From assembly GCA_948502395.1 (NCBI GenBank), contig CAOPES010000006.1, forward strand, positions 49,101-113,100: DNA of 64,000 bases, written 5' to 3'. Both the position numbers and the translations under genes were made by a program. Positions 6,986 to 52,299 of the stretch are shown one piece after another. This DNA comes from an uncultured Clostridia bacterium. Its GTDB lineage: Bacteria > Bacillota > Clostridia > TANB77 > CAG-508. The notes under the pieces are model-generated. The model did no database searches. It had not been told where the DNA came from and worked only from the letters and a program-made list of their open reading frames with translations. Each line of letters begins with the position of its first letter. Position 1 is the first letter of the stretch.

Positions 6986-7007
6986 TTTTTGGGACAGGTC
7001 AAAAAAA
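6986..7007. repeat. GC-rich palindromic intergenic repeat, half copy (tttttGGGACAGGtcaaaaaaa)
   Basis: Member of the GGGACRG-core repeat family seen at 8 loci in this window. Confidence 0.5.
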
Positions 7008-7010
7008 TTA

Positions 7011-7040
7011 TTGACAAAGTGAATAAAAAAGTAGTATAAT
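7011..7040 (+). promoter_or_regulatory. Sigma-A promoter driving the toxI-like repeats and toxN
   Basis: TTGACA 7011-7016, 18-nt spacer, TATAAT 7035-7040. Confidence 0.65.
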
Positions 7041-7100
7041 AAATATATTAAGAACAGCAATCATCTGATTACTAATAGGGAGTTCTTACTAAAAAAGGAC

Positions 7101-7194
7101 GATTTAAAATTAGGTAAAGTTCAAGCCTTATAAATGAACTGATTTAAAATTAGGTAATGCTTAGCCTTATAAGTAAGCAGTTTTAAAATAAAGG
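7101..7194 (+). ncRNA. toxI: ToxI-like type III antitoxin RNA: 2.3 tandem 40-nt repeats
   Basis: 7101-7140 and 7141-7180 are near-identical 40-mers (gatttaaaattaggtaa[ag]g[tc]t[ct]a[ag]gccttataa[ag]t[ga]a[ag]c...). A partial third repeat spans 7181-7194. The array sits between a promoter and a terminator directly upstream of a ToxN-family gene. Confidence 0.7.
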
Positions 7195-7223
7195 GGCACA
7201 TTTGAAAAGATGTGCTCTTTTTG
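7194..7223 (+). terminator. Rho-independent terminator between the toxI repeats and toxN (canonical type III TA attenuator)
   Basis: gcacatttgaaaagatgtgc hairpin followed by tcttttt. Confidence 0.7.
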
Positions 7224-7247
7224 TATTCTTTTAAGAAAGAGGTAAAA

Positions 7248-7763
7248 ATGGAAGAATTATTATTTTACGTTGTTGATAGAAAATATATACAATATTTAAG
7301 TGAGTTCGAGAAACATATAAGTTACAATAAAGATGATATAGGGCATAGTAGACCATATTTAGGAATCGTGCTGAAAATAGATAATTATGAATATTTTGTA
7401 CCACTATATTCATATAAAGAGCATTACAAAAAATACAAAAATAATCCTAGTTTTTTCTTTGTAAAAGATAGAAAAGATAGACCACTGGCAATTATCAAAT
7501 TTTCAGCAATGATACCTGTACCTAAAACAACAAATGTAACAGAACTGTTAAGATATGGAGAGCAAGATAAAAAATATAAAGATTTAATATCAGCAGAATA
7601 TAGATACATCAATTCAAACAAAAGCGAAATTTATAAAAGAGCAAATAAAATGTATGTAGCAGTTACACAACATAAAAATAATTTTTTAAAAACTATTGCT
7701 TGTGATTTTAAACTATTAGAAGAAAAAAGTTTAAAGTACAAAGAAAATTATAGTAAAAATTGA
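7248..7763 (+). CDS. toxN: ToxN/AbiQ-family type III toxin endoribonuclease
   Basis: Clear similarity to Pectobacterium ToxN and Lactococcus AbiQ: KYIQYLSEFE, GIVLKIDNYEYFVPLYS, IIKFSAMIPV and CDFKLLEEK. Start chosen at the ATG at 7248 with SD AGAAAGAGG. The upstream ATG at 7212 lies inside the terminator. Confidence 0.85.
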   Translation: MEELLFYVVDRKYIQYLSEFEKHISYNKDDIGHSRPYLGIVLKIDNYEYFVPLYSYKEHYKKYKNNPSFFFVKDRKDRPLAIIKFSAMIPVPKTTNVTELLRYGEQDKKYKDLISAEYRYINSNKSEIYKRANKMYVAVTQHKNNFLKTIACDFKLLEEKSLKYKENYSKN

Positions 7764-7874
7764 ACAGTTTGTTGCAGAATATACGACAACTAAACAAAAT
7801 ATTATTTTTAAATGGACAAAAACTTAAATATGTATTACAATATTACTTGGATAAAAATAAAAGGAGAAAGCAAA

Positions 7875-8597
7875 ATGTTAAATCAATTCTCAAGAACAGA
7901 GCTGTTAATAGGAAAAGAAGGAATAGAGAAACTAAAAAAAGCAAAAGTAGCAATATTTGGAATAGGTGGAGTAGGTTCATTTGTAGCAGAAGGACTAGCA
8001 AGGGCAGGAGTAGAAAAATTCGTATTAGTAGACAATGACCAAATAAGCATAACAAACTTAAACAGGCAAATAATAGCTACAATAAAAACAATAGGAAAAA
8101 ATAAGGTTGATGTAATGAAAGAAAGGATACTAGAAATCAATCCAAATGCACAAGTAGAGATATATCGAGAATTCTATATGCCAAATTCAGAAACCCAAAT
8201 AATAACACAAGACCTAACATATGTAGCAGACTGTGTAGACACAGTTACTGCAAAAATAGAAATTATTATGCAATGTAAAAAATTAGGAATTCCAGTAATA
8301 TCATCAATGGGAACAGGAAATAAGCTAGACCCATTAAAATTTGAAATTACAGATATTTATAAGACAAGTGTATGCCCACTAGCAAAAGTTATGAGAAAAG
8401 AATTGAAAAAAAGAAATATAGAAAGCTTGAAGGTGTTATATTCAAAAGAAGAACCAATAAAAGCAACCAATAATACAGAATGTTTATCAGAAACAAAGAA
8501 AGCACAAGTACCAGGAAGTATATCATTTGTACCATCTGTTGCAGGATTAATAATTGCAGGAGAAATTGTAAAAGATATTATAAAAAATAATGAATAG
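7875..8597 (+). CDS. tcdA: tRNA threonylcarbamoyladenosine dehydratase (ThiF/MoeB E1-like)
   Basis: GxGxxG FGIGGVGS, LVDNDQISITNLNRQ; SD AAGGAG. Confidence 0.8.
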   Translation: MLNQFSRTELLIGKEGIEKLKKAKVAIFGIGGVGSFVAEGLARAGVEKFVLVDNDQISITNLNRQIIATIKTIGKNKVDVMKERILEINPNAQVEIYREFYMPNSETQIITQDLTYVADCVDTVTAKIEIIMQCKKLGIPVISSMGTGNKLDPLKFEITDIYKTSVCPLAKVMRKELKKRNIESLKVLYSKEEPIKATNNTECLSETKKAQVPGSISFVPSVAGLIIAGEIVKDIIKNNE

Positions 8598-8609
8598 GAG
8601 TGATAAAAA

Positions 8610-8867
8610 ATGGAGTATAGATATAGACCAGAAGGGGTTTGTTCAGTTGAAATGATTTTTAATATTGAAAATGATATTGTAAAAAAGTTAAAAATAGTAG
8701 GTGGATGCCCTGGAAATACAGTGGGAGTGTCAAAGTTGATAGAAAATAAATCTATTGAAGAGATAATTAGTTTATTAAAGAGTATTCAATGTGGAAATAA
8801 AGGAACTTCTTGTCCAGACCAAGTAGCAAGAGCTTTAGAAAAATATAAATTACAAAAATTGAAATAA
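8610..8867 (+). CDS. TSCPD-domain protein (TIGR03905 family)
   Basis: 85 aa with the TSCPDQ motif. Confidence 0.6.
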   Translation: MEYRYRPEGVCSVEMIFNIENDIVKKLKIVGGCPGNTVGVSKLIENKSIEEIISLLKSIQCGNKGTSCPDQVARALEKYKLQKLK

Positions 8868-8933
8868 ATACATTAAAAATTATACATGTTTTCAAAAATA
8901 GATAGAAAATAAGAAAAAAGGATAGAATTAAAA

Positions 8934-9242
8934 ATGAAAATAATTACATTATGTGGAAGTTTAAAATTTCAAAAAGAAATGATGGAAATTGCAGAAAAAA
9001 TGGCATTGGAAGGATATTGTATCCTTACACCTGTTTATACTGTATCAAAAAATATTGAAATAAACAAGGAACAATTGGTAAAATTGAAAGAAGCACATTT
9101 TAAAAGAATAGAATTATCTGATAGCATATTAGTAGTAAATGTAAATAATTACATTGGAAATAGCACAAATTTAGAAATAGAATATGCTAAAAAATTAGGT
9201 AAAGAAATTATATATTATACCGATTTAATGAAAAATGATTAA
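8934..9242 (+). CDS. Hypothetical 102-aa protein (possibly nucleoside 2-deoxyribosyltransferase-like/SLOG fold)
   Basis: ORF with an SD. ITLCGS...ILVV pattern. No confident family assignment. Confidence 0.35.
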   Translation: MKIITLCGSLKFQKEMMEIAEKMALEGYCILTPVYTVSKNIEINKEQLVKLKEAHFKRIELSDSILVVNVNNYIGNSTNLEIEYAKKLGKEIIYYTDLMKND

Positions 9243-9333
9243 AGCAACAACATACAACTTTGAAAAATGAAAGAAAAGACAGTAACTTTTGGCAAGAGAT
9301 AACTAATGCAGTCCTTTTACCCACAGTAAGGAG

Positions 9334-10129
9334 ATGTTTATATTGGAAAAATTAGATTTTTTAATTGATTATTTATTACAAGAAAATAAAAAAATAAAAA
9401 TAGAAAAAATGCCATCAAATTTAGAAGAGAAAAAGAATTTATGGAGAAGCTTATGTAATATAAGAAATGCAAAGCCAATTTCTAATGAATACCTAAAAGT
9501 AGAAAAAGAATATTTACAAGAAGAATTAAAGAATAAAATAGTAACAAATGTAGAAGATATAAAACCAATTTTTGATAAAATATGTTTATGGAAGGGTGAT
9601 ATAACAACATTATCAATAGAGTGTATTGTAAATGCAGCAAACTCCTCAGGACTTCGGATGTTTTACTCCTTGCCATAAGTGTATTGACAATCAAATAAAT
9701 ACATTTGCAGGAGTAGGATTAAGATTGGAATGTAATGAAAAAATGAAACAAATTGGTAAATTAGAAACAGGAAAAGCATTTATTACAAAAGCACATAATT
9801 TACCTTCAAACTATGTTATTCATACTGTTGGGCCAATTATATATGAAAATGTCACAGAAAAAGAAATACAAGAACTAAAAAATTGTTATATTAATTCGTT
9901 AGAATTAGCAAAAGAAAATAACATACGAGAAATTGCATTTTGCTCTATATCAACAGGAGAATTTAGATTCCCAAAGGTACAAGCGAGTAAAATAGCGATA
10001 AATACAGTAAAGGAATACTTAAAGAAAAATGAAAAATACTTTGATAAAATAATTTTTAATGTATTTAAAGATGAAAATTACGATATTTATTTTAAAAATT
10101 TGAATCCAATAATAGTAAAGAGTATATAA
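9334..10129 (+). CDS. Zn-type macrodomain protein-ADP-ribosylhydrolase (SauMacro/SpyMacro class). Needs a +1 shift at the in-frame CGG at 9655-9657.
   Basis: IVNAANSS(G)L|GCFTPCHKCIDN...VIHTVGP macro signature with Cys/His Zn motif. Frame 1 stops 7 codons after the CGG. Skipping the C of cttCGGatg gives a continuous 265-aa protein. Confidence 0.7.
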
Positions 10130-10269
10130 TGTACCAGAAACAAAAGCATATAGAAAGATAAGATTAGAAATATAAAAAATAAAGATAGGTAATAGTTTAA
10201 ATATTATCTATCTTTTGTGTTATAATTATCATATAAGGGAGATTATTTTTGTAATTTCTCTTTTTTTGC

Positions 10270-10321
10270 TTGACAATCAAAAAATAAAATAGTATCATTG
10301 TATTATGCAAGTAATACAATG
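10270..10321 (+). promoter_or_regulatory. Promoter and palindromic operator of the gntR-ABC operon
   Basis: TTGACA 10270-10275, TATCAT 10293-10298. Perfect 10-bp inverted repeat cattgtatta-N6-taatacaatg (10296-10321) overlapping the start codon region. Confidence 0.6.
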
Positions 10322-10702
10322 ATAGAAAGGAAAGAAAAAGTGGAGTATATTTTTGATAATGAAAGACCAATTTACATACAACTAGTTGAGATAATAAGAA
10401 CTCAAATTATTTCAGGGAAACTACAAAAAGGAGAAAGATTACTATCTGTAAGAGAGCTAGCACTTACAATGAAAGTAAATCCAAACACAATGCAAAAAGC
10501 ACTAGTAGAACTGGAAAATGAGGGCCTAGTTTATACAGAAAGAACAAACGGAAAATTTGTAACAGAAAACGAAGAACTAATTGAAAAAGTAAAAAGAGAA
10601 TTGGCCAAAGAAAAAGTAAATACATATTTAAACAGTATGAAAAATATAGGAATTAACTTTGAAGAAGCCATCAATTACTTGCAAGAACTAGGAGGAAAGT
10701 AA
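10298..10702 (+). CDS. GntR-family (YtrA-like) transcriptional repressor
   Basis: Winged HTH LSVRELALTMKVNPNTMQKAL. Start is either TTG 10298 or ATG 10319. First gene of a regulator-ABC-permease operon. Confidence 0.7.
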   Translation: MYYASNTMIERKEKVEYIFDNERPIYIQLVEIIRTQIISGKLQKGERLLSVRELALTMKVNPNTMQKALVELENEGLVYTERTNGKFVTENEELIEKVKRELAKEKVNTYLNSMKNIGINFEEAINYLQELGGK

Positions 10703-10703
10703 T

Positions 10704-11399
10704 ATGGAATTAGTACAATGTAAAAACTTATACAAAAAATTTGATAATCAAGAAATTCTAAAAAACATCAACTTAACAATTCCAAAAGGAAAAATTATAG
10801 GCCTACTTGGAAAAAATGGAATGGGAAAAACAACATTAATAAAACTAATAAATGACTTACTAACACCAACAAGTGGAGAGATTTTAATAAACGGAAAAAA
10901 TCCAGGAGTACAATCAAAAAAAGTAATATCATATCTACCAGAAAGAACATATTTAGATAAAGGTATGACTGTAAAGCAAGTTTTAAAATACTTTGAAGAA
11001 TTTTACGACAATTTTAATAGAGAACGTGCAGAAAAACTTTTAAAAGACCTAGACTTAGAAATTAATAAAAAAATTTCACATATGTCAAAAGGTATGCAAG
11101 AAAAACTACAATTAATATTAGTAATGAGTAGAGAAGCAGAACTGTATATTTTAGATGAGCCATTAGGCGGTGTAGACCCAGCAACAAGAGATTATATATT
11201 AGACACAATACTATCAAATTTTAAAGAAGGTGCAAGTGTTCTCATTTCAACTCATCTAATTGCAGATATTGAAAGGATATTAGATGATGTTATATTTATA
11301 GACAAAGGTGAAATTAAACTGACTTCATCTGCTGATGAATTAAGAAGAAAAGAGAATGCAAGTATAGACGAAATATTTAGGAGGTCTTTTAAATGTTAG
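10704..11399 (+). CDS. ABC transporter ATP-binding protein
   Basis: Walker A GKNGMGKTT, signature MSKGMQEKL, Walker B LYILDEP. Confidence 0.85.
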   Translation: MELVQCKNLYKKFDNQEILKNINLTIPKGKIIGLLGKNGMGKTTLIKLINDLLTPTSGEILINGKNPGVQSKKVISYLPERTYLDKGMTVKQVLKYFEEFYDNFNRERAEKLLKDLDLEINKKISHMSKGMQEKLQLILVMSREAELYILDEPLGGVDPATRDYILDTILSNFKEGASVLISTHLIADIERILDDVIFIDKGEIKLTSSADELRRKENASIDEIFRRSFKC

Positions 11400-12184
11400 G
11401 AAAATTATTAAAATATGATTTAAAATGGATATATAAAGTAGTAATAGTTTTTTATGCTTTATCATTTATATTTGCTATTATTACAAGAATATGCTTTAGC
11501 ATAGAAAGCTCAGCTTTATTTGGAATTTTAGGACAAATAGCCGCCGGATTTACTATAAGTATGCTTGCAAGTAGTTTGATAAATGGAATAATGAGGTCTT
11601 GGGCAAGATTTATTATAAATATTTATAAAGACGAAAGTTATCTAACACATACATTACCAATTGAAAAAAGACAAATATATCTATCAAAAGTTTTAGCAGC
11701 TATAATTTGTATATTTGTAACAGTTGTGGTTGCATTAGTATGTTTATTTATATGCTACTATTCTAAAGAAAACATAGAATTTTTGAAACAAATCTTAGAG
11801 TTAGCTGCAAACACCTATGACACAACAGTTATTAATTTATTATTAGTAATTTCATTTATATTATTCCTAGAAATAGTTTTTGTAGTTTTAGTAGGCTATG
11901 TAGGAATTATAATTGGACATAGAGCTAATAAGAACAAAATGGTTAATTCAATTGCAACAGGATTTGGATTATATATGTTTACAAATGCTTTATCTTTATG
12001 TCTTGTTGGTTCGATAGCTATGTTTAATAAAGATATTATGAATTTAATAAATACAATGGAGATTATAAATATTGATGTGATTAAAATAATTATGATATCG
12101 GCTATTGCAATCTATATGTTCTATAATGTTGTTTATTATTTTATTGGAAAAAGATTGCTTGAAAAGGGTGTTAATGTGGACTAG
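11393..12184 (+). CDS. ABC-2-type membrane permease component (YtrC/YtrD-like)
   Basis: Six predicted TM segments. Overlaps the ATPase gene stop. Confidence 0.6.
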   Translation: MLGKLLKYDLKWIYKVVIVFYALSFIFAIITRICFSIESSALFGILGQIAAGFTISMLASSLINGIMRSWARFIINIYKDESYLTHTLPIEKRQIYLSKVLAAIICIFVTVVVALVCLFICYYSKENIEFLKQILELAANTYDTTVINLLLVISFILFLEIVFVVLVGYVGIIIGHRANKNKMVNSIATGFGLYMFTNALSLCLVGSIAMFNKDIMNLINTMEIINIDVIKIIMISAIAIYMFYNVVYYFIGKRLLEKGVNVD

Positions 12185-12195
12185 AGTGTAAAACA

Positions 12196-12232
12196 AAAGT
12201 TGTGATAGGAGTTAATTTAACTCCTATTTTTT
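12196..12232 (+). terminator. Rho-independent terminator
   Basis: ataggagttaatttaactcctat followed by tttttg. Confidence 0.7.
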
Positions 12233-12390
12233 GTATTTATTAATTTAAAAAATAAATTAATAAAAAAATATTGACAAATAAGTAAAAGAGATGTAAAATA
12301 CAAACAGCAGTTCAAATGGAGAAATAAATATAGTCTAAAAGTAGAAATATAAGTAGCAGGAACTAAATTTTAGAGAAAGGATGTGTACTT

Positions 12391-13344
12391 ATGGAAGAGA
12401 AGAAAAACGAGATTATTTTATTTGAGAATCAGGGGGTGAAATTAGAAGTAAATTTAAAAGACGAGACAGTATGGCTAACACAAAAGCAAATGTCTAAATT
12501 ATTTAATAAGGACAGAAGAACAATAACAAGACATATTCAAAATATATATAAGTGTGGAGAATTAGACGAAAATTCAGTATGCTCATTTTTTGAGCATACT
12601 GCGGAAGATGGAAAAATATACAAAGTCCAATATTATAATTTAGATATGATTATTTCCATTGGATATAGGGTAAACAGCAAACAAGGTGTTGCATTCAGAC
12701 AATGGGCAAACAAAATCCTAAAAGACTACATGTTAAAAGGATACGCTGTAAACCAAAAAAGATTAGAATACTTAGAAAAAACAATAAAACTAATAGACAT
12801 AGCAAACAGAATAGACGAAAGACTAGAAAACAATGATGCAAAAGAAATACTAAAAGTAATAGGAGAATACTCAAAAGCATTAGACCTATTAGACGATTAT
12901 GACCACAGAACATTAAAAAAGATAAAAGGCAATACAGACGAAAGAAAAATAGAATATAGTGAATGTATAGACATAATAAATAAACTTAGATTTAACGAAG
13001 AAAGTACACTATTTGCAGTAGAAAGAGACAAAGGATTACAATCAATAATTGGAAACATATATCAAAGTTTTGCAGGACAAGATATATACAAAAGCATTGA
13101 AGAAAAAGCAGCAAACTTTTTATACTTAATAGTAAAAAATCATGTATTTGCAGACGGAAATAAAAGAATAGCAGCAACACTATTTATATATTTCTTAAAC
13201 TTTTATGGAATTTTATATAAAGAAAACAAGCAAACAATCGATAACAACACATTAACAGCTTTAACTTTATTAATTGCAGAATCAAATCCAAAAGAAAAAG
13301 AAATAATAGTAGATTTGGTAATGAACTTTTTAAATAATGAATAA
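12391..13344 (+). CDS. RhuM-family N-terminal domain fused to Fic/Doc domain
   Basis: RhuM signature ...ETVWLTQKQMSKLF...HIQNIYKCGEL. Degenerate Fic motif HVFADGNKRIAA (HxFx[DE]GNxR). Confidence 0.75.
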   Translation: MEEKKNEIILFENQGVKLEVNLKDETVWLTQKQMSKLFNKDRRTITRHIQNIYKCGELDENSVCSFFEHTAEDGKIYKVQYYNLDMIISIGYRVNSKQGVAFRQWANKILKDYMLKGYAVNQKRLEYLEKTIKLIDIANRIDERLENNDAKEILKVIGEYSKALDLLDDYDHRTLKKIKGNTDERKIEYSECIDIINKLRFNEESTLFAVERDKGLQSIIGNIYQSFAGQDIYKSIEEKAANFLYLIVKNHVFADGNKRIAATLFIYFLNFYGILYKENKQTIDNNTLTALTLLIAESNPKEKEIIVDLVMNFLNNE

Positions 13345-13418
13345 GAAATCAAATTAGCTAGCACATATATAATTATGTAATAGCTAATTTTATTTTATAA
13401 AAACATTATAAAAAAGTA

Positions 13419-13477
13419 TTGACAGTTGAGTACTTATTCACATATAATACAAGTAAAGTTGAATGAATACTCAATTA
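13419..13477 (+). promoter_or_regulatory. cadC promoter with flanking imperfect inverted 15-mers (likely ArsR/CadC operator)
   Basis: TTGACA 13419-13424, TATAAT 13443-13448. TTGAGTACTTATTCA at 13426-13440 and its near reverse complement at 13461-13477. Confidence 0.5.
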
Positions 13478-13504
13478 TAATATAAAAAGTAAGGAGGCAA
13501 TCAA

Positions 13505-13867
13505 ATGTCTAAAAATGAATTTATATGTGATTGCAATGTAATCCACCAAGATGTGGTTAACAAAACAACAGAAAATATGCTAGAAGAAGACACATTTAAT
13601 AAATTAGCAGAATTTTTCAAAATTGTTGGAGATACCACAAGAGTAAAAATATTATTTGCATTAGACAAAAACGAGATGTGTGTATGTGATATTGCAAACG
13701 TATTAGGAATGAGTAAATCATCTATTTCACATCAACTAGGAACATTAAGAAGAAGCGGAATTGTTAAATGTAGAAAATCAGGGAAAGAAGTTTTCTATAT
13801 GTTAGATGATGAACATGTAAAAAAAGTATTTGAAATAGGTGTAGAACACATAGAGCATAAAAAGTAG
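13505..13867 (+). CDS. cadC: ArsR/SmtB-family metalloregulator (CadC-like)
   Basis: HTH plus metal-binding Cys pairs (CDC N-terminal, CVCD). Confidence 0.8.
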   Translation: MSKNEFICDCNVIHQDVVNKTTENMLEEDTFNKLAEFFKIVGDTTRVKILFALDKNEMCVCDIANVLGMSKSSISHQLGTLRRSGIVKCRKSGKEVFYMLDDEHVKKVFEIGVEHIEHKK

Positions 13868-13880
13868 GAGAAGTAATGAT

Positions 13881-15956: not shown

Positions 15957-16026
15957 TAAAGCATTGACAAGTTTTATATAGTGTTATACAATGTTTAAGA
16001 AAGGAAAAATAAAGGAGGAATTAAAC

Positions 16027-16746: not shown

Positions 16747-16757
16747 AAAATAGGGGA

Positions 16758-18458: not shown

Positions 18459-18465
18459 TTCTAAA

Positions 18466-18501
18466 ACGCAAAAAAGAGCATATATATATTATATATGTTC
18501 T
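18466..18501 (+). terminator. Rho-independent terminator
   Basis: agagcatatatatattatatatgttct followed by ttttttt. Confidence 0.65.
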
Positions 18502-43064: not shown

Positions 43065-43180
43065 AATGTAGATTTTTTAGAAAATTTGCGTTATTATATA
43101 ATTATAGTTTGATAACTTAGTAGAAACATTAAGAGTGGTTACTACTAAGTTATTAAATTTAATAAATAGAGGTGTAATAA

Positions 43181-43861
43181 ATGTTCAATATATTAGTAGT
43201 AGAAGATGACAAAAATTTGCGAAAACTAATAACAACATGTTTAAGAAGAGAGAAATATAAAACATATGAAGCAACAAATGGAGTAGAGGCATTAGAAGTA
43301 TTAGATACAAATTATATAGATTTAATAGTAACAGACATAATGATGCCAAAAATGGATGGATATGAGTTAGTAAGAGAACTGAGAAATGCAAATTTCAATA
43401 CACCAATTTTGCTGATAACAGCTAAAAGCACAATAAATGACAAAAAGGAAGGATTTTATTTAGGTGCTGATGATTATATGGTAAAACCAATTGATATAGA
43501 AGAATTATCTTTAAGAGTAAAAGCATTACTAAAAAGAGCAAAACTTACAGCAGAGCAAAAAATTAAAATAGGAAAATTGGTAATAAATTATAATCAACTA
43601 TCAGTTGTAAGAGAAGACAAAATTTATACTTTGGCACAAAAGGAGTTTTATTTGTTATATAAATTGCTAAGTAATCCAGACAAAATCTTTACAAGACAAG
43701 AATTAATGGAAGAAATTTGGGGCTTGGAAAACGAATCAGATTATAGAACAGTAGACGTCCATATCAAAAGGATTAGGGAAAAGCTGGCAGATGTAAATGA
43801 ATTTGAAATTGTAACAGTAAGAGGAATAGGATATAAATCAATAATAAATGGAGAAAAATAA
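43181..43861 (+). CDS. OmpR-family response regulator
   Basis: Receiver domain (DD...D54...K) plus winged-helix trans_reg_C. Confidence 0.9.
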   Translation: MFNILVVEDDKNLRKLITTCLRREKYKTYEATNGVEALEVLDTNYIDLIVTDIMMPKMDGYELVRELRNANFNTPILLITAKSTINDKKEGFYLGADDYMVKPIDIEELSLRVKALLKRAKLTAEQKIKIGKLVINYNQLSVVREDKIYTLAQKEFYLLYKLLSNPDKIFTRQELMEEIWGLENESDYRTVDVHIKRIREKLADVNEFEIVTVRGIGYKSIINGEK

Positions 43862-43863
43862 AA

Positions 43864-44980
43864 ATGTTTGAAAAAATTTTAGGAAAAAGAAAATCAATAC
43901 AAAGGTCACTAACAAGAAGTTTTATAATATCAATCTCAATGGTAATAATAATTACACTTATAGGATTTTACATATTTGTTGTCCCATCAATGAACACAAA
44001 ATTGATAGAATTTAACATAAGTGGAAAAGAAGACATTGGAGAAATTTTATTTATTGCAACAAGTTTCTTGGCATTGGCGATAATAAATATAGTGTTAATT
44101 AGTGCAATATTAATAAGAATAAATACCAAGAAAATGTTACAACCAATCAAACAACTAAATGATGCAACAAAAAAAGTTGCTTCACGGAGACTATGACATA
44201 GAATTAGAAACTAGAAGAGAAGACGAAATAGGAGAAGTTACGCAAAACTTTAATAAAATGATAAAAGAATTGCAAAGCACAGAAAATCTACAAACAGAAT
44301 TTATAAATAATGTATCACACGAAATAAAAACTCCAATAACTTCAATAGAAGGGTTCGCAAAATTACTAAAAGAAAAAGACTTATCAGATGAAGAAAGAGA
44401 AGACTATTCAAATATTATTATAGAAGAATCAGAAAGACTTACAAATTTAGCAGGCAAAATGTTAAAACTATCAAAATTACATAATCAAGACAGAATTACT
44501 AATAAACAAGAAATTTTAGTAGCTGAACAAATCAGAAGAGCAGTTTCTCTGTTAGAACCAAAATGGGGAGAAAAGGACATAAAAATAAATGTTAACCTAG
44601 AAGAATGTTGCTTTTTAGGTGATGAAGAGTTATTATTTCAAGTATGGGTCAACTTATTAGATAATGCAATCAAGTTTTCAAACCAGAATGGAAAAATAGA
44701 TGTAAAAGTTGCTAGTAAAAACGGATATATTAATGTTGCAGTTAAAGACTATGGCGCAGGAATGCAAGAAGCGGAACTTGATAAAATTTTTGAGAGATTT
44801 TATCAAATAGATAGGTCACACTCAGAAGAAGGCTGCGGATTAGGATTAGCAATTGTAAAGAGAATTATAGAGCTTTCAGAAGGAAAAATTGATGTAGAAA
44901 GTGAAGAAGGAAAAGGAACAACTGTAACAGTTAAGTTGCCACAAGTTAAAGAAAAAAATAATAAAATAATAATAAGCTAA
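43864..44980 (+). CDS. Sensor histidine kinase (BceS-like, intramembrane-sensing). Needs a +1 shift at the CGG at 44185-44187.
   Basis: Two TMs plus HAMP ...ATKKVAS then G DYDIELETRREDEIGEV. H-box SHEIKTP. HATPase_c (GLGLAIV). Frames join only after skipping the C of tcaCGGaga. Confidence 0.75.
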
Positions 44981-45070
44981 GGAGTGTCCCCTTTGGCAAA
45001 AAATTGCCAACAGGGACGGAGATAAATGGCAATAAATTGCCAAAAAGGACCGTCCCCAATGGCAATATTG
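44981..45070. repeat. GC-rich palindromic repeat (two units; same family as 39166-39219)
   Basis: GGAGTGTCCCCtTTGGCAAAAAATTGCCAA...TTGCCAAAAAGGaCCGTCCCCAATGGCAA. Confidence 0.65.
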
Positions 45071-45087
45071 GAAAGGAAGATAGTTTT

Positions 45088-45789
45088 ATGTCATATATTG
45101 AGTTTAAGAATATTGTAAAAGAATATAAAATGGGAGAAGTTACGATTAAGGCTTTGGAAGATACGAATTTTGAAATTAATAAAGGCGAACTTGTTGTTAT
45201 TGTTGGACCATCAGGGGCTGGAAAGACTACTGCTCTTAACATTTTGGGTGGTATGGATATACCTACTTCTGGACAGGTTTTTGTTGATGGGAAAGAGATT
45301 TCGAAATTGAATAACAAGAAGTTAATTGAATATAGAAGAAATGATATTGGTTTTGTGTTTCAGTTTTATAATTTGGTGCAAAATTTGACTGCTAAGGAGA
45401 ATGTAGAGCTTGCAACACAGTTATGTGATGACGCGCTAGATGTTGATGAGATTTTGGATAAAGTGGAGTTAGGTAATAGGAAAGATAATTTCCCTTCTCA
45501 ATTATCTGGCGGAGAGCAACAAAGGGTTGCAATTGCAAGGGCGATTGCTAAAAATCCTAAGTTGTTGTTATGTGATGAACCAACAGGTGCGTTAGATTAC
45601 AAGACAGGAAAGAGTATTTTGAAGTTGTTGCAAGATATGGCAAGAAAAGAGAAAATGACAATTATTATAATTACACATAATGGCGCAATTGCTCCAATGG
45701 CTGATAAAGTAATTCATTTTAAAAATGGTAAAGCAGAAAAAGTAGAAATAAATTCAAATCCAGTATCAATCAGTGATATTGAGTGGTAA
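45088..45789 (+). CDS. ABC transporter ATP-binding protein (BceA-like)
   Basis: Walker [18 protein letters not shown], Walker B LLLCDEPT. Start at the ATG at 45088 with SD GGAAAGGAAG. The ORF-track start at 45004 runs through the repeat element. Confidence 0.85.
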
Positions 45790-45801
45790 GAAAGGGAAAA
45801 G

Positions 45802-48800
45802 ATGAAAAAGTCATTAATAAAGAATTATTTTAAATCAATTTATGTAACAAGAAGAAGGTTTATTTCCATATTAATTATGGCTTTTTTGGGTGTGGGATTT
45901 TTTGCTGGTTTAACAGCAAGTAGCCCAGATATGCAAGACACTTTGGAGCATTATTTAGATGAAAATAATATGCACGATATAAGTGTAATTTCTACAATGG
46001 GATTAAATAACGAAGACATAGAGGCATTGAAAGAAATTGACGGAATAAAAGAAGTGTATGGAATTAAAACAAAAGATACAGAGGCAAAGCTAGGCGAAGT
46101 GGAAAAGGCTATAAAAGTAATTGAATATAGTGAAAATATTAATTTGCCAACACTTATAGAAGGCCGTATGCCAGAGAATGAAAGTGAATGTTTAATTGAT
46201 GAAGGATATAACAGATATACAGGTGAAAAGAGCTGTATAGGCGAAAAATTGATATTAGAAAATAGCGATGTAGATGAAGATAAAAACCCTATTTTTACAA
46301 CCAAAGAATTTGAAATAGTAGGTGTTGCCGCTTCTCCACTATATATAGGAAAAGAAAGAGGAACAACATCAGTGGGAAATGGTTCAATAGATTTTTACAT
46401 ATACACAAAAGATAGTGTAATAAATATGGCCTATTTTACAGAAGCAGGGATTATAGTTGAAGGGGCAAAAGAACTAGAAACTAATGGAGATGCATATTTA
46501 AGGCTGATAAATAACGCCGCAGACAAGATAAAAGGAATACAAGAAGAAAGAGAACAAGCAAGATACAATTCTATAATAGATAAAGCAAACCAAAAATTAG
46601 CAGATGCACAAAAAGAATTTGATGATAAAAAAGCAGAGGCGGAAAATAAGATATCAGATGCAGAGAACAAGTTAAATGCTGCTAAGGCAGAAATTGAAAC
46701 ATCAGAAGTAAAAATAGAAGACGCGAAAAAAGAAATAGAAAAAAATACTAAAAAAGCTAATACTGAATTTGCGAATGCTGAAAAACAAATAAAAAATGCG
46801 GAAGAACAAATTACAATAAAAGAAAAAGAATTGCAAGAAGGAAAGAAAGCACTAGAAGAAAACAGAGCTCAGGCAAATGCAGGGATACAGCAATTAGAAA
46901 ATGCAATAAACAAAACAAATGAAACAATTCAAAATTTGCAGGAACAAAAGAAACAATTAGAAATTGCTGGAATGGACACAACACAAATAAATGCAGGAAT
47001 TTTACAAGCACAAAATGCTAAAAAAGAATTAGAACAACAAAAAAATCAAATACAAACTCAATTAACAGAGGCAGAAAATAAAATAAAGTCTCGGAGAGCA
47101 AGAATTAAACAAGGGAAAACAAGAGTTAAATAAGCAAAAAACAACACTTGTAAATACTAAGAGAACAACATATAGCAAAATCGAAAGTGGAAAAAAAGAA
47201 ATACAAACAAATAGCCAAAAACTGCAAGATGCTAAAACAGAGATTGAAAAAAATGAGCAAGAACTAGAAAAACAAAAAGCAGATGTAAAATCACAATTAG
47301 CAGAAGCACAAGAAGAGCTAAATAAGGCAAAGGAAGATATCAAAAAAATAGAAAAAGGAAAATGGTACATACAAGATAGATTAGATAACACAGGCTACAC
47401 TAGTATATTTGACGCAATAAAAACAATGTCTAATATTTCAAAGCTTTTTCCTGTAATATTTTATTTAGTTGCAGTATTAATAAGTTTAACATCAATGACA
47501 AGAATGGTTGAAGAAGAAAGAGTAGAAATTGGAACATTAAAAGCGCTTGGTTATACAAATACTCAAATTATATTAAAATACGTTTTATATGCATTACTTG
47601 CGTCTGTAATAGGTGGAATACTTGGAATGTCAGTAGGATTTTACTTATTGCCATATATTGTATGGAGTTTATATTCTATGTTATATACAATTCCGAAGTT
47701 TTATTACACGTACAGATTAGGGATAGGCTTACTAGGAATTATAATTGCATTCATATGTATAGGTGGAACAACAATTTTTGTTGCAAACCAAGAATTAAAG
47801 CAAATGCCATCAGTATTAATGAGACCTAAATCACCTAAAAACGGCAAAAAGATTTTTATAGAAAAAATAAAATTTATATGGAAAAGACTAAACTTTTCGC
47901 AAAAAGTAACAGTAAGAAACATATTCAGATATAAGAAAAGAGCATTAATGACAATAATAGGAATAGCTGGATGTACAGGGCTTATGCTAACAGGTTTTGG
48001 AATAAGAGATTCTGTTGTTGACATTCCAAAAGCACAATTCGGAGATATATTTAAATATGAAATCGGTGTAGCACTACTAAATACTGATGGCCTAGAAGAT
48101 ATAGAAAAATATTTAAATGAGAATGGAAAAATAGAAGACTACACAAAAATATGTGCAACATCAGGAACAATAACTAATGGAAATGGAAAATATGACGCAA
48201 ATGTATTTGTGCCAGAAGAAGCAAATCAGATAGAGAAAATATGTGAATTGTTAGACTATATTCAAAACGAAAAAATATCATTGTCAAATGAAGGAATTAT
48301 CATTACAGACAAAATGGCTGAACAACTAGAAATAAACAAAGGAGACGAGGTAACCTTTATTGACGGAGACAATGTAAATTATACATTTAAAGTAGACGGA
48401 ATAGTAAAAAATCATGTTGGACATTATGTTTATATGACAAAAGATTTATATGAACAAAATATTGCATCGTATAAAACTAATATGATTATGGTAAATACGA
48501 ATGAAATCACAAAAGAAGAACAAAATGAAATTTCAGCAAAACTCTTAGAAATAAAAGGAGTTGCAGCAGTATCTATAATTTCAGATTTGATGTCAACAGT
48601 AAGTGATATGCTAAACACTATGAATTATGTAGTGGTAGTATTAATTATAGCATCAGCATTACTTGCTTTTGTAGTATTGTACAATTTGGCTAATATCAAC
48701 ATAGGCGAGAGACAAAGAGAAATTGCTACACTAAAAGTTTTAGGCTTCTATGACAGGGAAGTTGATAATTACATCAATAAAGAAAATTTAATTTTTACGA

Positions 48801-49021
48801 TTGTTGGTATAATTTTAGGATTAATATTTGGAACTTTATTGACAGGTGCAATTATTGTTAGCATAGAAATTGACAATCTGAAATTTATGCAGAAGATATT
48901 ACCTTCTAGCTATATCTTTTCAGCTGTTATAACATTGACTTTCTCAATTGCTGTTAATTATATTATTCATTTCATATTGAAGAAAATTGATATGATTGCA
49001 AGTTTAAAAAGTGTGGAATAG
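45802..49021 (+). CDS. FtsX/MacB-type ABC permease (~1073 aa) with a ~400-aa coiled-coil extracytoplasmic insertion. Needs a +1 shift at the CGG at 47092-47094.
   Basis: ORFs 45802-47133 and 47426-49021 join with no stops after skipping the C of tctCGGaga (KIKS then G EQELNKGKQELNKQKTTLV...). Two FtsX 4-TM modules. Confidence 0.7.
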
Positions 49022-49028
49022 AAAAACA

Positions 49029-49063
49029 TCTGCCAAGAGGTACAGACCTTTTTGGCAGATTTT
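49029..49063. repeat. Hairpin related to the palindromic repeat family (ctGCCAAGAGGTACAGACCTTTTTGGCAg). Likely terminator.
   Basis: Resembles one arm-pair of 23934-23964. Lies immediately after the permease stop. Confidence 0.5.
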
Positions 49064-49136
49064 TAAAATTATGAACTATTTATGAATACAGCATAATAAA
49101 TCAGAATATATTTTAATATCAATTGGAGGGATTTTT

Positions 49137-50396
49137 ATGCGATTTTTAAAATTAGTTACTTGCATATTACTTATATCAATTTTTAGTTTATGTTTTGCGA
49201 CACATTGTTTTGCCGAAGCGACAGCTTATGTATGGTCACCATTAAATGAAACAAAAGAAACAAGCTCACAAATTTCAGCAGAAACAAATTCAACGGAAGC
49301 AACAACTGGCACATCAACAAATACTTTGTCATTAGAATCAGGAGCTGCAATATTAATTGAACAAACAACAGGTCAAGTTTTATATGAACACAACATACAT
49401 GAGCAATTACGTCCTGCTTCTGTTACAAAGGTTATGAGTATTTTACTTATTATGGAAGCATTAGACAGCGGGAAAATAAACTTAACAGATAAAGTACCTT
49501 GTAGCGAAAATGCCGCAGCTATGGGAGGCTCTCAAATTTGGCTAGACCCAAGAGAAACTTTATCAGTTGATGAAATGTTAAAAGCAATATGTGTAAATTC
49601 TGCGAACGACTGTGTAGTAGCGATGAGCGAGTTTATAGCTGGTTCAGAAGAAGCTTTTGTTCAAATGATGAATGACAAAGCAAAAGAACTTGGAATGAAT
49701 GACACAACATTCAAAAATTGCCACGGCTTAGACGAAGATGGTCATGTAACATCTGCCTATGATATTTCTGTAATGTCCAGAGAATTGTTGAACAATCATC
49801 CTAGTATCACAAAATATACTACAATTTGGACTGATTCTTTACGTGATGGCAAGTCTCAATTATCAAATACAAATAAATTGATAAGAACTTACAAGGGTGC
49901 AACAGGATTAAAAACAGGTTCTACATCACTTGCATTATACAATTTATCTGCAAGTGCGACCAGAGATGAATTATCTTTAATAGCTGTTATAATGAAAGCA
50001 CCTTCTACAAAAGTGCGTTTTGCAGAAGCTCAACGACTTTTAGATTTTGGGTTTAACACCTTTTCTTTTAAACAATTTGGGAAAAAAGATGATACCGTAA
50101 AAAATATTTCAATCGATAAAGGTGTAACATCTAATGTTGAGGCTATTTTAAAAGATAATTGTGGTACTTTAATTGAAAAAGGTAAAGATAAAAATATTGA
50201 ACAAACTTTAAATTTGCCTGAAAATATTCCAGCACCTGTAACTACTGGTCAAAAACTTCGGAGAAATTTCTTTTAGTTTAGATGGCAAAGTTATTTCTTC
50301 TACTGATATTATTGCTAAAACTAGTGTTGAAAAAATTAGCCTATTTACTACGGCTAAACGTGTTATTTATTCCTGGGTTGATTTGCTAAGAAGTTA
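49137..50396 (+). CDS. dacF: D-alanyl-D-alanine carboxypeptidase (DacF/DacB-like, S11 family). Needs a +1 shift at the CGG at 50259-50261.
   Basis: SxxK (ASVTKVM), SGN and KTG motifs. Unshifted frame stops at 50276. Skipping the C of cttCGGaga gives ...GQKL then G EISFSLDGKVISSTDIIAKTSVEKISLFTTAKRVIYSWVDLLRS, matching the conserved PBP5 C-terminal domain. Confidence 0.8.
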
Positions 50397-50510
50397 AAAA
50401 TATAGTGCGTACAAATTTGTATATCAAACTTGGCGCACAAACAATTGAATGGGCTTTGAAGAAAAATACAATTTTAAGTATATATAATCAAATTAAGCCA
50501 CTATTATTCT

Positions 50511-50542
50511 CCTAAATATTAAAAGATTTTTTAATATTTAGG
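50511..50542. terminator. Bidirectional rho-independent terminator between convergent dacF and the vanW-like gene
   Basis: Perfect hairpin cctaaatattaaaagattttttaatatttagg. Confidence 0.75.
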
Positions 50543-50546
50543 ATTT

Positions 50547-51240
50547 TTATATAGGTTTTCTACTTGTTATAGAAACATCAACAGTAGAGCCATTAGAAGA
50601 GCAATGTATAATTATATCATTTCCAGTATTATTAACAAATTTGAAATCATAACTACCATAGGCAACAGCTGCGTCTTTTCCTTTTTGGATATATGGTACA
50701 TAGTTACTGTGTGCATGTCTTTCTGTAACTGATAAGCTAGGTACAGCTAATACGGCATTATAAAGAGTGCTACTTATTTGACAATTTCCGCCACCAAGGC
50801 CTTTTTTCTTGTTTCCATCTTTGTCAAAAATATCTGCTTTTTGATATCCTTTTGCAGTTGTGGCTTGTCCGTACAGTGTTACAAAAAGAGAATGTTTCGC
50901 CGTTTTTTACAGTTGTATTGTTCAATGTGTTACAAGTAATATTTATGTTATTTTGCCTAGCAGACTCCTTATTATAGACTTTTGTAGAAAAGGTAGCAAT
51001 AGTTTCTTCTTTATATTGCGGTTGCGTTGCAGGGACTTCAATATTAGTTATATTTTTGTTATCTTCATTTTTATTATTTTCTGTTTTATTTTCTTCAGTT
51101 GTAGAGGTTTTGTTTGCTTCATATTCACTTTCTTTGTTTTCATTTTTAGTAGAGTTGTTTGTAAAGTATAGGTATGCTCCAATTCCGCCTGCTAAAATAA
51201 TTATAATAAGTATTATCCAAATCCATTTATTTTTTTTCAT
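50547..51240 (-). CDS. VanW-family protein. Needs a +1 shift at the minus-strand CGG (plus coordinates 50869-50871).
   Basis: Minus strand ...VKNGETFSFCNTV then G QATTAKGYQKADIFDKDGNKKKGLGGGNCQISSTLYNAVL (VanW core) only after skipping the C of gtaCGGaca. The unshifted frame stops at 50824. Confidence 0.75.
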
Positions 51241-51402
51241 TATTTAATCACCAAAATTAGTATGCCCAAAATCTTAGAAAATATTTAAATTTTGAAATTA
51301 TTTCAAAAACTAAAATTTCAATAAAAATTTGACCAGATATAAAAAATATGTTATAATGTAAACATAAAGTGCCGAAAGGCGATAGAAAGGTAAATAGATA
51401 AT

Positions 51403-51636
51403 ATGAAAAAGAAACTAGTGAGTTTATGGAGAAAAAAACGGAACAGTGGAACTTTTACGTTAATTGTATTTTCCATAACGATACTATTTCCAGCTCTTCT
51501 TTTTGGATTTATTATTGCGATGTTGCCAGTTAGTACATATCCATATGTTTTATTAGTGTTTATGACATATATTGCGATTGTACTAGTCGGATATCAATAC
51601 TTAGATAGAGTAGTTTATTATCTAGAAAAGAAGTGA
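51403..51636 (+). CDS. Hypothetical 77-aa two-TM membrane protein. Has an in-frame CGG at codon 13 (51439-51441).
   Basis: Preceded by TTGACC-N17-TATAAT (51329-51357). One of only two in-frame CGGs where the unshifted reading looks sensible. A +1 shift here would give a 19-aa peptide. Confidence 0.35.
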   Translation: MKKKLVSLWRKKRNSGTFTLIVFSITILFPALLFGFIIAMLPVSTYPYVLLVFMTYIAIVLVGYQYLDRVVYYLEKK

Positions 51637-51743
51637 GAGATTTACCAGAAAAATTAGTGTATTTATTACACTAATTTTTTCTATTGACATTTTTCGCAAA
51701 AAAAAGTATAATAAATATGCAAATAAAAAAGGAGAGAAGTTTT

Positions 51744-51905
51744 ATGCTTGCAAAATATTGGAAAAAAATTGGAATGTTAATATTAATAATAGCTTGTATA
51801 TTTAATATAATGGGCAAACTAGTAAATAAACTATCATTAAATAAAGAAATGATATATTCAGCACAATATATGTATGAACAAGAAGAAAAAAATGACAGAA
51901 AATAA
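51744..51905 (+). CDS. Hypothetical small membrane protein (53 aa)
   Basis: TTGACA 51685 - TATAAT 51708 promoter, SD AAAAGGAGAG, single TM. Confidence 0.35.
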   Translation: MLAKYWKKIGMLILIIACIFNIMGKLVNKLSLNKEMIYSAQYMYEQEEKNDRK

Positions 51906-51986
51906 AACAAAACACTTGAAAAAATAAAAGAACTATGATATTATAGAAAATAGTCAGTTATAAAATTGAGAAAGAGGTGAGCTTTA

Positions 51987-52187
51987 ATGAAAAAAGAAAT
52001 ACAACCAAAATACAACCAAACAACAATTACATGTGCATGTGGAAACGTGTTAGAAGTTGGTTCAACAAAAACAGATTTAAAAGTAGACGTATGTTCAAAA
52101 TGCCATCCATACTGGACAGGAAACCTAAGACAAGAAACAGCTGGTGGTAGAGCAGACAAATTTAAGAAAAAATATGGTCTTGCATAA
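51987..52187 (+). CDS. rpmE: 50S ribosomal protein L31
   Basis: CxxC...CxxC Zn-ribbon form of bL31, 66 aa. Confidence 0.9.
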   Translation: MKKEIQPKYNQTTITCACGNVLEVGSTKTDLKVDVCSKCHPYWTGNLRQETAGGRADKFKKKYGLA

Positions 52188-52200
52188 GACAGATAAAACG

Positions 52201-52232
52201 AGCAAAGGTTCAAAACTTTTGCTTATTTTTTT
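52201..52232 (+). terminator. Rho-independent terminator
   Basis: agcaaaggttcaaaacttttgct followed by tattttttt. Confidence 0.7.
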
Positions 52233-52237
52233 GTGGA

Positions 52238-52299
52238 TTTTTTGGGACAGGCCCAAAACGTCCGTGAATGAAACTTTTTTGGCCTGTCCCAAAAAGTCC
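52238..52299. repeat. GC-rich palindromic intergenic repeat (GGGACAGGCC ... GGCCTGTCCC hairpin)
   Basis: Perfect 10-bp GC stems flanked by A/T runs. Same family as 39010-39035 and 6986-7007. Confidence 0.65.

Follow-up and report, generated by a model that had tools for sequence, protein, structure and literature searches.

The short GC-rich palindromes that recur between the genes of a 64-kb stretch of DNA from an uncultured Clostridia bacterium (contig CAOPES010000006.1; the whole stretch is hereafter called the window) probably represent a dispersed family akin to the repetitive extragenic palindromes (REPs) and to their doublet form, the REPINs. This family is found in a clade of low-GC, spore-forming, uncultured gut Clostridia, and appears to be tied to a RAYT-like transposase, that is, a relative of the REP-associated tyrosine transposases of the Y1 HUH class. 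The repeats form a family of hairpins with a common apex, they are spread over the genomes of this clade, and in related species they flank the RAYT-like gene on both sides, with a core that differs from species to species and changes on the two flanks together. A cognate RAYT-like gene would also be carried by the genome from which the window derives, and its protein would, by analogy with related enzymes, act catalytically on the repeat units.

The repeat family in the window

The core GGGACRG was found 11 times in the window when both strands were read, in comparison with 2.36 ± 1.38 copies in dinucleotide-preserving shuffles (maximum 6; none of 100 shuffles reached 11), and all 11 copies are intergenic. 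By using a covariance model, R1, built from an alignment of units taken mostly from other genomes, 12 hairpin units were recovered at E ≤ 0.0034, the best remaining match having an E value of 0.17. All 12 units are intergenic and, together with two truncated half-units, they occupy seven intergenic regions (Table 1). This corresponds to a density of about 0.2 units per kb (12 R1 matches in 64 kb), from which a copy number per genome can be obtained by extrapolation only. A repeat search returned a TTGCCAA-type family, here called type A, at 23929, 39182, 44997, 45030 and 49023, a type-B pair at 39009 and 52237 (81% identity, 62 nt), and a 122-bp palindrome with arms of 41 nt each (20678-20718 and 20759-20799) that are 95% complementary. 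A scan of the whole window with Rfam at gathering thresholds matched no family.

A preliminary description of the window had noted these palindromes, whose positions agree, exactly or to a few bases, with the coordinates quoted in it, and had pointed to the recurrence of GGGACRG between genes, which the counts above bear out. The 122-bp palindrome at 20678-20799 was correctly described, as was the common start of the elements at 39166 and 44981: both begin with GGAGTGTCCCC, which reads GGGGACACTCC on the opposite strand and is a truncated unit. Other details needed adjustment. The loci, put at eight or more, were all located, although those at 39010 and 39166 lie between the same two genes, hence the seven regions. 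The sequence tttttGGGACAGGyCaaaaaaGTCC is present at 39010-39035, whereas the copy at 6986-7007 lacks the trailing GTCC. The element at 49029-49063 is a member of the family according to R1 (E = 0.0034), but a degenerate one, with the core GGTACAG and no GGGAC.

A hairpin with a conserved apex

Each unit is a hairpin of about 30 nt with 11-14 stem pairs and the conserved apex GGGGAC[A/G]G-N-CC. If positions are counted from the initial G of GGGACRG, i is paired with 10-i, and the stem extends up to 14 pairs; its top is formed by GG(GG)/CC(TT), and the loop consists of the 5 nt AC(A/G)G-N. The lower stem is wholly different among sub-families while being self-complementary in each of them, as in TTGCCA/TGGCAA, GGGTGTTTTT/AAAAACACCC and AAACTTTTT/AAAAAAGTTT. 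Given as 5' arm, core and 3' arm, the sub-families are TTGCCAnnn, GGGACGGACC, TTTTTGGCAA; GGGTGTTTTTG, GGGACAGACC, TTAAAAACACCC; GATGTTTTTG, GGGACGGAGC, AAAAAAACATC; AAACTTTTT, GGGACAGGCC, AAAAAAGTTT; TGAGACAGGG, GGGACAGTCC, TTGAATGTCTCA; and TGTCCATCn, GGGACGGTTC, TGTTTGGACA.

Of 310 distinct units, about 73% form at least 10 of the 14 pairs at this one fixed geometry, a share that is 1.3% for random positions. Covariation was evaluated with 85 units drawn from several sub-families; the right arm that had served as database query is matched by none of these 85. Standard pairs fill 75% of the cells in this set; the figure drops to 57% after shuffling and to 37-54% if the pairing partner is shifted along. 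For covariation, a score of 0.49 was obtained, against 0.21, and 0 of 500 shuffles attained it; two-sided changes occur in 11 of the 14 pairs.

Most units stand alone as 30-nt hairpins or are repeated head to tail every 33 nt, and others are paired as inverted doublets, which form long hairpins. When units no more than 400 nt apart in the window and in loci L004-L100 were taken as neighbours, there were 32 direct pairs, mostly at the 33-nt period, and 43 inverted pairs. The inverted pairs are one-way: in all 43 a + unit precedes a - unit, their T-rich arms pointing towards one another, and the reverse order was not encountered. Folding, proposed for RNA as a check in the preliminary description, was carried out on single-stranded DNA (ssDNA) and gave the doublets of the window energies of -21.6 to -42.8 kcal/mol, with z scores of -6 to -12 (Table 1).

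In the window and 100 further loci, 281 of 328 GGGACRG cores lie outside crude open reading frame (ORF) calls that cover 80% of the sequence, and units were found in tandem, convergent and divergent intergenic settings. Solo units show no orientation bias with respect to transcription (27 vs 22, p = 0.57) and crowd after stop codons, the median distance of the unit centre being 34 nt to the preceding stop, as compared with 114 nt to the start that follows. According to the position matrix, type-A units in the G orientation consist of a hairpin followed by a T run.

Larger composites of about 210-290 bp, similar to miniature inverted-repeat transposable elements (MITEs) and bounded by type-A terminal inverted repeats (TIRs), were observed at four loci (L037, L068, L052 and L010; Table 1). 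Those at L037 and L068, on different contigs of one metagenome-assembled genome (MAG), have 30-nt inverted type-A ends and a common AT-rich interior of 225 nt with a central palindrome; that at L052 belongs to another MAG; its interior, inverted in order, is related to theirs, and the whole is nested within a larger palindrome. At the ends of the composites of L037, L068 and L052 no target-site duplication is visible, and the flanks of L052 prolong the palindrome.

Spread among gut Clostridia and turnover

The type-A 20-mer GGGACGGWCCTTTTTGGCAA was found in at least 97 stretches from about 20 Clostridia MAGs, with dozens of copies in CATGLK01 alone, so the copies are not restricted to the window, which the preliminary description had named as part of what would refute its reading. 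Apart from L024, apparently a chance match, the hosts are all uncultured Clostridia of low GC content, sampled from the guts of human, mouse, rabbit and other hosts, and other sub-families co-occur with the 20-mer in the same 8-kb blocks. Since the 20-mer had 0 matches in 2.9 million viral contigs, a phage origin or vector is unsupported. The early characterization of the palindromes as REP-, BOX- or MITE-like is upheld in a more specific form: they constitute a multi-genome hairpin family, they flank a RAYT-like gene in relatives, and they serve as TIRs of composites of about 290 bp.

The comparison of orthologous sites gave two different answers depending on the distance. Elements at three sites are identical in every same-species contig recovered, while a relative with 93% identity (L001, L003) carries other unit sets of the same family at both of the two orthologous sites compared. 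At the spoIIIAD-spoIIIAE site of this relative, divergence begins exactly at the last codon/stop and ends at the Shine-Dalgarno sequence; at the spoIIIAH site (23931 in the window), L001 has a different arrangement of units. Taken together, identity among strains and differences in the 93% relative indicate turnover at the timescale of species divergence and not between strains.

A RAYT-like gene flanked by the repeats

By listing the ORFs between inverted type-A units about 1 kb apart, an ORF of 246-252 aa was identified in two MAGs (L067 and L031), the two proteins being 54% identical to each other. Across seven related species, the RAYT-like protein has 245-270 aa, with protein identities of 47-100%, and matches the Pfam family Y1_Tnp (IS200-like) with E values of 1e-9 to 2e-14. 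In 19 homologues, down to 45% identity, the HUH motif NHAHIL and the motif YIHxNPVKA are invariant or nearly so, the latter carrying the Y---NP signature of class-2 TnpA-Y1 proteins (PMC6006769). A regular expression for the N-terminal and HUH motifs of the IS200 type had no match at any of the loci, because the N-terminal motif of the RAYT-like protein differs, and a PDB search with the protein matched no IS200/IS608 transposase. A C-terminal helix-turn-helix (HTH) is predicted with moderate confidence: the segment ISYRxMEKxLGIsREkLRxL is present in 19 of 19 aligned homologues, and the C-terminus of P0105 matched HTH_11 (1e-5), HTH_23 (2e-4) and HTH_28 (2e-3), most other members falling below threshold.

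The position of the gene is constant. The order gdpP-rplI-dnaB-[RAYT]-tilS-ftsH was found in seven of seven species (L067, L031, L101-L104, L128), and the same location in all of them indicates a single-copy, vertically inherited gene. It lies immediately 3' of dnaB, the gene of the replicative helicase, and 5' of tilS, with a gap of 12-75 nt or an overlap, and looks like a member of a dnaB-tilS operon; adjacency to dnaB is suggestive for an enzyme family acting on ssDNA at replication forks. In all seven species, units flank the gene in one orientation between the dnaB stop and the gene, and in the opposite orientation 150-250 nt downstream, within tilS. The composite seen at 39166-39222 of the window is found again in L067, where it occupies 4946-4995, upstream of the RAYT-like gene.

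The frame of tilS, which encodes tRNA-Ile lysidine synthase, holds one to three in-frame units at each of the seven RAYT loci. Each 33-nt unit inserts 11 codons (e.g., KNCQKGPSPVA) between the SGGPDS and VAHVNH motifs.

The core of the flanking units is species-specific yet matches on both sides of the gene (GGGGACGG, GGGACAG, GGGGTCGG, CGGTTCCGGG; Table 1). The flanks of L128 are identical as inverted repeats at 29 of 29 positions, and in L103 the variant core of the flanks recurs at intergenic sites elsewhere on the same contig. The positional association in seven species, together with this co-variation of the core, is the main argument that protein and repeats form one system.

A proposed mechanism

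The IS200/IS605 TnpA transposases and the E. coli TnpA-REP act on folded ssDNA, mainly on the lagging-strand template (PMC6006769), and it is this established behaviour of Y1 HUH enzymes that leads us to propose the ssDNA hairpin as substrate of the RAYT-like enzyme. The enzyme would bind the folded hairpin at the replication fork and read its conserved apex. Cutting and rejoining could then seed units in intergenic DNA, duplicate them in tandem, invert them or remove them over evolutionary time, and some copies, such as those at 49025 and 23931, may have been secondarily co-opted as terminators or mRNA 3' hairpins. Units are tolerated just past stop codons, between genes and in the variable loop of TilS; these sites, the lack of orientation bias and the lack of target duplication fit a DNA-level process filtered by selection.

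Several observations weigh against a RAYT-driven family of REP type. We know of no biochemical evidence for the action of TIRYT-type enzymes, the RAYT branch discussed below, on such hairpins. The best NCBIfam match of the protein, REP_Tyr_transpos, scores 65 bits, under the curated cut-off of 80, and its only PDB relative, E. coli TnpA-REP (4ER8), is a weak match (E = 0.01 with a single sequence, 0.0024 with the family profile). Beside the transposase gene only type-A stems were seen, and none of types B, C or other sub-families. The window holds neither a RAYT-like gene nor dnaB or tilS: a tblastn search of it with the RAYT-like protein, DnaB, TilS and FtsH gave only spurious TilS matches through the peptide encoded by the repeat, and no homologue could be linked to the window's species, since cluster member accessions and contig look-ups for P0052 and P0057 led to other samples. 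In the position matrix around the units, no GTAG or GTGG stands at the foot of the hairpin. Same-species contigs showed no presence/absence differences at the three sites compared and thus no sign of current mobility. In addition, the 85 units of the covariation set were picked by eye from 150, with chance-like or genic-looking copies dropped, which favours structure.

Alternative explanations

The units could instead be RNA-level elements, namely intrinsic terminators or 3' hairpins that stabilise or process mRNA, resembling each other by convergence or local duplication and with no mobilising enzyme. This explanation is rather unlikely, although part of the evidence speaks for it: type-A units in the G orientation have the hairpin and T run of a terminator, the unit at 49025-49063 lies 4 nt past a stop codon with a T tail, the + strand unit at 23931 has the same form, a terminator scan detects the arm 20791-20759, and solo units keep closer to stop codons than to the next start. 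However, the unbiased orientation of solo units means that half of them would show the complementary loop and no T tail, and the terminator form is unmet by - strand units, by type-B units and by units placed before a Shine-Dalgarno sequence within operons. Units directly before such a sequence inside an operon (20678-20799, 44981-45070), or in frame within tilS, are at odds with a terminator, as is a conserved apex of 8-10 nt on freely varying stems, which is not a terminator property. Neither the tie to the RAYT-like gene nor the species-specific core shared by its two flanks is explained. An RNA-level role is plausible as a secondary, exapted function of some copies.

A second alternative would derive the palindromes from an ordinary MITE family, of which they would be the termini or relics; a DDE transposase working on double-stranded TIRs would have moved it, and the RAYT-like gene would be an unrelated neighbour. 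The composites of about 290 bp, with their 30-nt inverted type-A ends and the 225-nt interior common to L037 and L068 and related in L052, point in this direction, and the 122-bp palindrome at 20678 is MITE-like in look. Nevertheless, this reading is quite improbable. The ends of the composites lack a visible target-site duplication. No DDE transposase with such ends was seen in about 830 kb of sequence bearing the repeats, where the Y1/HUH gene is the only transposase-like one between inverted units. Copies are mostly 30-nt singles or 33-nt tandems and not TIR pairs, and the covarying stems point to selection on a folded single strand.

The preliminary description offered the alternative that the TTGCCAA/TTGGCAA palindromes are operators through which one regulator acts on both the MMPL and the Bce-like ABC operon. 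Clusters at 39166-39222 and 44981-45070 do contain TTGGCAA-N4-TTGCCAA directly upstream of the MMPL and ABC ATPase genes, but the idea has very little left in its favour. The clusters sit between an upstream stop and a Shine-Dalgarno sequence (at 44981 with no room for a promoter), and copies also stand after spoIIIAH (23931), in the spoIIIA operon, after the FtsX gene (49025), in tilS ORFs and at the at least 97 unrelated sites in about 20 genomes. Their intergenic settings are of the tandem, convergent and divergent kinds, and solo units gather past stop codons and not near promoters. Sub-families with wholly different stems share the GGGGACRG apex, so that the TTGCCAA arms are not the conserved determinant.

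Comparison with known systems

A dispersed hairpin family tied to a RAYT-like transposase finds its closest counterpart in the TIRtrons, in which RAYT-like TIRYT genes are flanked by inverted repeats, many of them containing GGGGWSAS, without REPs of the GTAG type; in some species these repeats form dispersed families, dimers or clusters (PMC3733652). TIRYT corresponds to TnpA-Y1 subclass 2.1, which has a C-terminal HTH and for which REP-like structures were not found (PMC6006769), and to RAYT Group 1, which is present in Clostridia and tied to only modestly repeated 16-mers (PMC5581495). Clostridia are unmentioned in Di Nocera 2013 (PMC3733652). The present family fits a TIRtron/TIRYT variant of the REP-RAYT systems, the subclass 2.1 assignment being a provisional one made solely from domain features and the TIR motif. 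GGGGWSAS is fitted at 8 of 8 positions by GGGGACAG (20696 and 20781, the latter as reverse complement) and GGGGACAC (39176 and 44991, both as reverse complement) in the window, and at 7 of 8 by the flank cores GGGGACGG (L067, L031, L101) and GGGGTCGG (L128); in L104 the flank GGGACAG is preceded by A, hence it is not GGGG, and the core of L103 is divergent. As in TIRtrons, a RAYT-like Y1/HUH protein with Y---NP and a putative C-terminal HTH stands between inverted flanks bearing GGGGWSAS, the flanking repeat is dispersed as singles, dimers and clusters, and the gene is single-copy and vertically inherited. The differences are that TIRtrons are known mainly from Proteobacteria and Acidobacteria, being only noted to occur in Clostridia, and that they are generally described as lacking REP-like structures or as having only modest repeat families, whereas the Clostridia repeats are abundant hairpin units with an apex motif and several stem sub-families. 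Furthermore, the gene holds a fixed dnaB-tilS position, with one repeat in frame within tilS.

In canonical REPs, the foot of the hairpin is preceded at 0-2 nt on its 5' side by the tetranucleotide GT[AG]G (PMC6006769, PMC3733652). With no GT[AG]G in this place, the Clostridia units fall outside the canonical REP type. They nevertheless share with the REP/BIME/REPIN-RAYT systems of E. coli, Pseudomonas and Stenotrophomonas the short extragenic palindromes at gene 3' ends and within operons; the singles, tandem clusters and inverted doublets forming long REPIN-like hairpins; the one domesticated Y1 transposase gene set in inverted copies (here in related species); the co-variation of repeat and enzyme; and occasional in-frame intragenic copies. 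They depart from them in the motif atop the hairpin, in a protein that scores under the NCBIfam RAYT cut-off and has an apparent extra HTH, and in the host, a Gram-positive spore former of about 29% GC.

The in-frame units in tilS are reminiscent of the Rickettsia palindromic elements (RPEs), in that a palindromic repeat lies in frame in an essential gene, adding 11 residues per unit and leaving the ORF unbroken. RPEs are longer, about 100-150 bp, and to our knowledge have no dedicated transposase. Moreover, the copies in the window are all intergenic, the intragenic ones being confined to the transposase-proximal tilS site of related genomes. BOX, RUP and SPRITE of S. pneumoniae, STAR of S. 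aureus and bcr1 of B. cereus are likewise short, structured, GC-richer intergenic repeats of AT-rich Gram-positives. The likeness extends to these traits (short, structured, intergenic, AT-rich host) and not to sequence: these elements and the Clostridia units showed no relation in sequence, and the Rfam scan, whose families include some of the former, had no match in the window. We know of no link between any of them and a RAYT-like gene. Chi, KOPS/SRS, DNA-uptake sequences, CsrA sites, integron attC and restriction sites were considered and rejected, since none of them fits a conserved hairpin apex that is restricted to intergenic DNA, occurs in two orientations and lies beside a Y1 transposase.

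In the literature, no description of such a family in Clostridia or Firmicutes was found, and none that joins RAYT, REPIN and Firmicutes. In Bifidobacterium animalis, an unexplained intergenic repeat GGGACAG(N)15TGTCCC has been reported in 21 copies, mostly near gene 3' ends (PMC5217627). It has the same core as the Clostridia units and might be another TIRYT-type family.

Genomic setting and neighbouring features

The DNA of the window is chromosomal and unremarkable, from a spore former of low GC content; nearly all of its genes are on the + strand, none encodes a transposase, and proteins identical to those of the window are encoded on contigs from many gut metagenomes and uncultured Clostridia MAGs. 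Its genes include the spoIIIA operon, RNase Y, ymdB, recA, recX, scpA, ytfJ, an MMPL gene, a two-component system with an ABC/FtsX transporter, a PBP5-type carboxypeptidase, miaB and mutS. Directly 3' of the solo unit at 6977-7015 lies a type III toxin-antitoxin locus (ToxIN-like), with a consensus promoter, a hairpin, a ToxN gene and a tandem repeat that is a candidate for the ToxI antitoxin RNA repeats. Promoter-like hexamers of the gene that follows are often found immediately next to type-A and type-B elements. Four short-read (Logan) contigs, L115-L118, stop at one same base, at about position 45008 of the window within the cluster at 44981-45070; repeats of this family break short-read assemblies. 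A 230-nt direct repeat with 77% identity covers, for each of two genes of putative surface proteins, the sequence ahead of the gene and its initial codons, and is probably a common promoter, leader and signal-peptide region of paralogues.

Table 1. Coordinates of the repeat elements, of the units and cores at the RAYT loci of related species, and of other features
Sequence	Position (strand)	Feature	R1 score	Setting and fold
Window	6977-7015 (+)	Solo type-B unit AACTTTTT-GGGACAGGTC-AAAAAAATT	29.5 bits, E 1.2e-5	Between flavin reductase/rubredoxin gene and ToxIN promoter; weak fold alone, -4.4 kcal/mol, z -1.8; identical across 3 same-species contigs
Window	20678-20799	Inverted doublet of two type-C units, 20683-20721 (+) and 20756-20794 (-), 40-nt spacer	41.4, 44.2 bits	Whole gap from spoIIIAD stop codon to spoIIIAE Shine-Dalgarno; -42.8 kcal/mol, z -12.3
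Window	23931-24005	Head-to-head type-A doublet, 23931-23969 (+) and 23964-24002 (-)	37.0, 36.5 bits	Right after spoIIIAH stop; -33.7 kcal/mol, z -9.8
Window	39002-39070 (+)	Type-B element: intact left unit 39002-39040 and degenerate right arm GACTTGTCCT	28.7 bits	Adjoins ytfJ-like stop codon; -12.9 kcal/mol, z -4.1
Window	39166-39222 (-)	Truncated unit 39166-39184, then full type-A unit 39184-39222	40.9 bits	Ends 6 nt 5' of MMPL gene Shine-Dalgarno; identical in 7 same-species contigs
Window	44981-45070	Three-unit cluster: truncated 44981-44999 (-), type-A 44999-45037 (+), type-A 45032-45070 (-)	32.9, 38.3 bits	Between histidine-kinase stop and ABC ATPase Shine-Dalgarno; -20 kcal/mol, z -4.6
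Window	49025-49063 (+)	Degenerate type-A unit TCTGCCAAGAGGTACAGACCTTTTTGGCAGA and T run; 83% identical to 23929 unit	21.6 bits, E 0.0034	4 nt after FtsX-permease stop; -10.4 kcal/mol, z -5.7; TTTTT next; shaped like intrinsic terminator
Window	52230-52304	Inverted type-B doublet, 52230-52268 (+) and 52266-52304 (-)	29.7, 35.1 bits	Directly 5' of promoter-like TTGCAA-N17-TAAAAT of miaB-like gene; -21.6 kcal/mol, z -6.0
L067	3843-3905	In-frame tilS units; flank core GGGGACGG		
L031	~762-800	In-frame tilS units; flank core GGGGACGG		
L101	3070-3160	In-frame tilS units; flank core GGGGACGG		
L102	4903-4931	In-frame tilS units; flank core GGGACGGAGG		
L103	4885-4945	In-frame tilS units; flank core CGGTTCCGGGTT, quite divergent		
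L104	4927-4999	In-frame tilS units; flank core GGGACAG		
L128	~3410-3440	In-frame tilS units; flank core GGGGTCGG		
L037	4462-4735	MITE-like composite		
L068	~450-720	MITE-like composite		
L052	~760-1030	MITE-like composite		
L010	3255-3465	MITE-like composite		
Window	7005-7763	ToxIN-like locus		ToxN gene PF13958, E 1e-42, ORF 7212/7248-7763
Window	7005-7033	Consensus promoter TTGACA-N17-TATAAT (positions ~)		After 7004
Window	7101-7189	39-nt tandem repeat, 2.2 copies		Candidate ToxI repeats
Window	24018-24046	Promoter-like hexamers TTGCAA-N17-TACAAT		After 24010
Window	52300-52330	Promoter-like hexamers TTGCAA-N17-TAAAAT		After 52299
Window	28664-28893 / 32039-32268	230-nt direct repeat		
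Window	28821-30641	Gene of BspA-type leucine-rich repeat protein		At 230-nt repeat
Window	32190-33530	Gene with weak Laminin_G_3 match		At 230-nt repeat

Implications

If the family belongs with the TIRYT enzymes, it may be the first clear REPIN-like population tied to TIRYT/subclass 2.1 (Group 1) RAYTs, with an apex-reading enzyme coupled to the replisome; this extension is tentative, and we regard it as possible but doubtful. Were it true, the enzyme would read a motif at the hairpin apex and not GTAG at the foot, and apex reading would explain how one core could spread over many covarying stems. Replisome coupling would follow from a gene fixed 3' of dnaB and a recognition hairpin in frame in tilS, and the co-varying series of enzymes and hairpins (GGGGACGG, GGGACAG, GGGGTCGG, CGGTTCCGGG) would offer material for a recognition code.

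For the annotation of widespread uncultured gut Clostridia, the finding of a RAYT-associated hairpin family accounts for a conspicuous kind of intergenic sequence and means that such sites are to be recorded as repeats and not as operators or small RNAs. It would extend the REP/RAYT-type systems, studied almost solely in Proteobacteria, to spore-forming Firmicutes, and would connect an abundant hairpin family with TIRYT, a branch that is poorly understood. The dnaB-RAYT-tilS order and the paired change of the flank cores furnish testable ideas on how these enzymes may recognise DNA and on why hosts may retain domesticated transposases.

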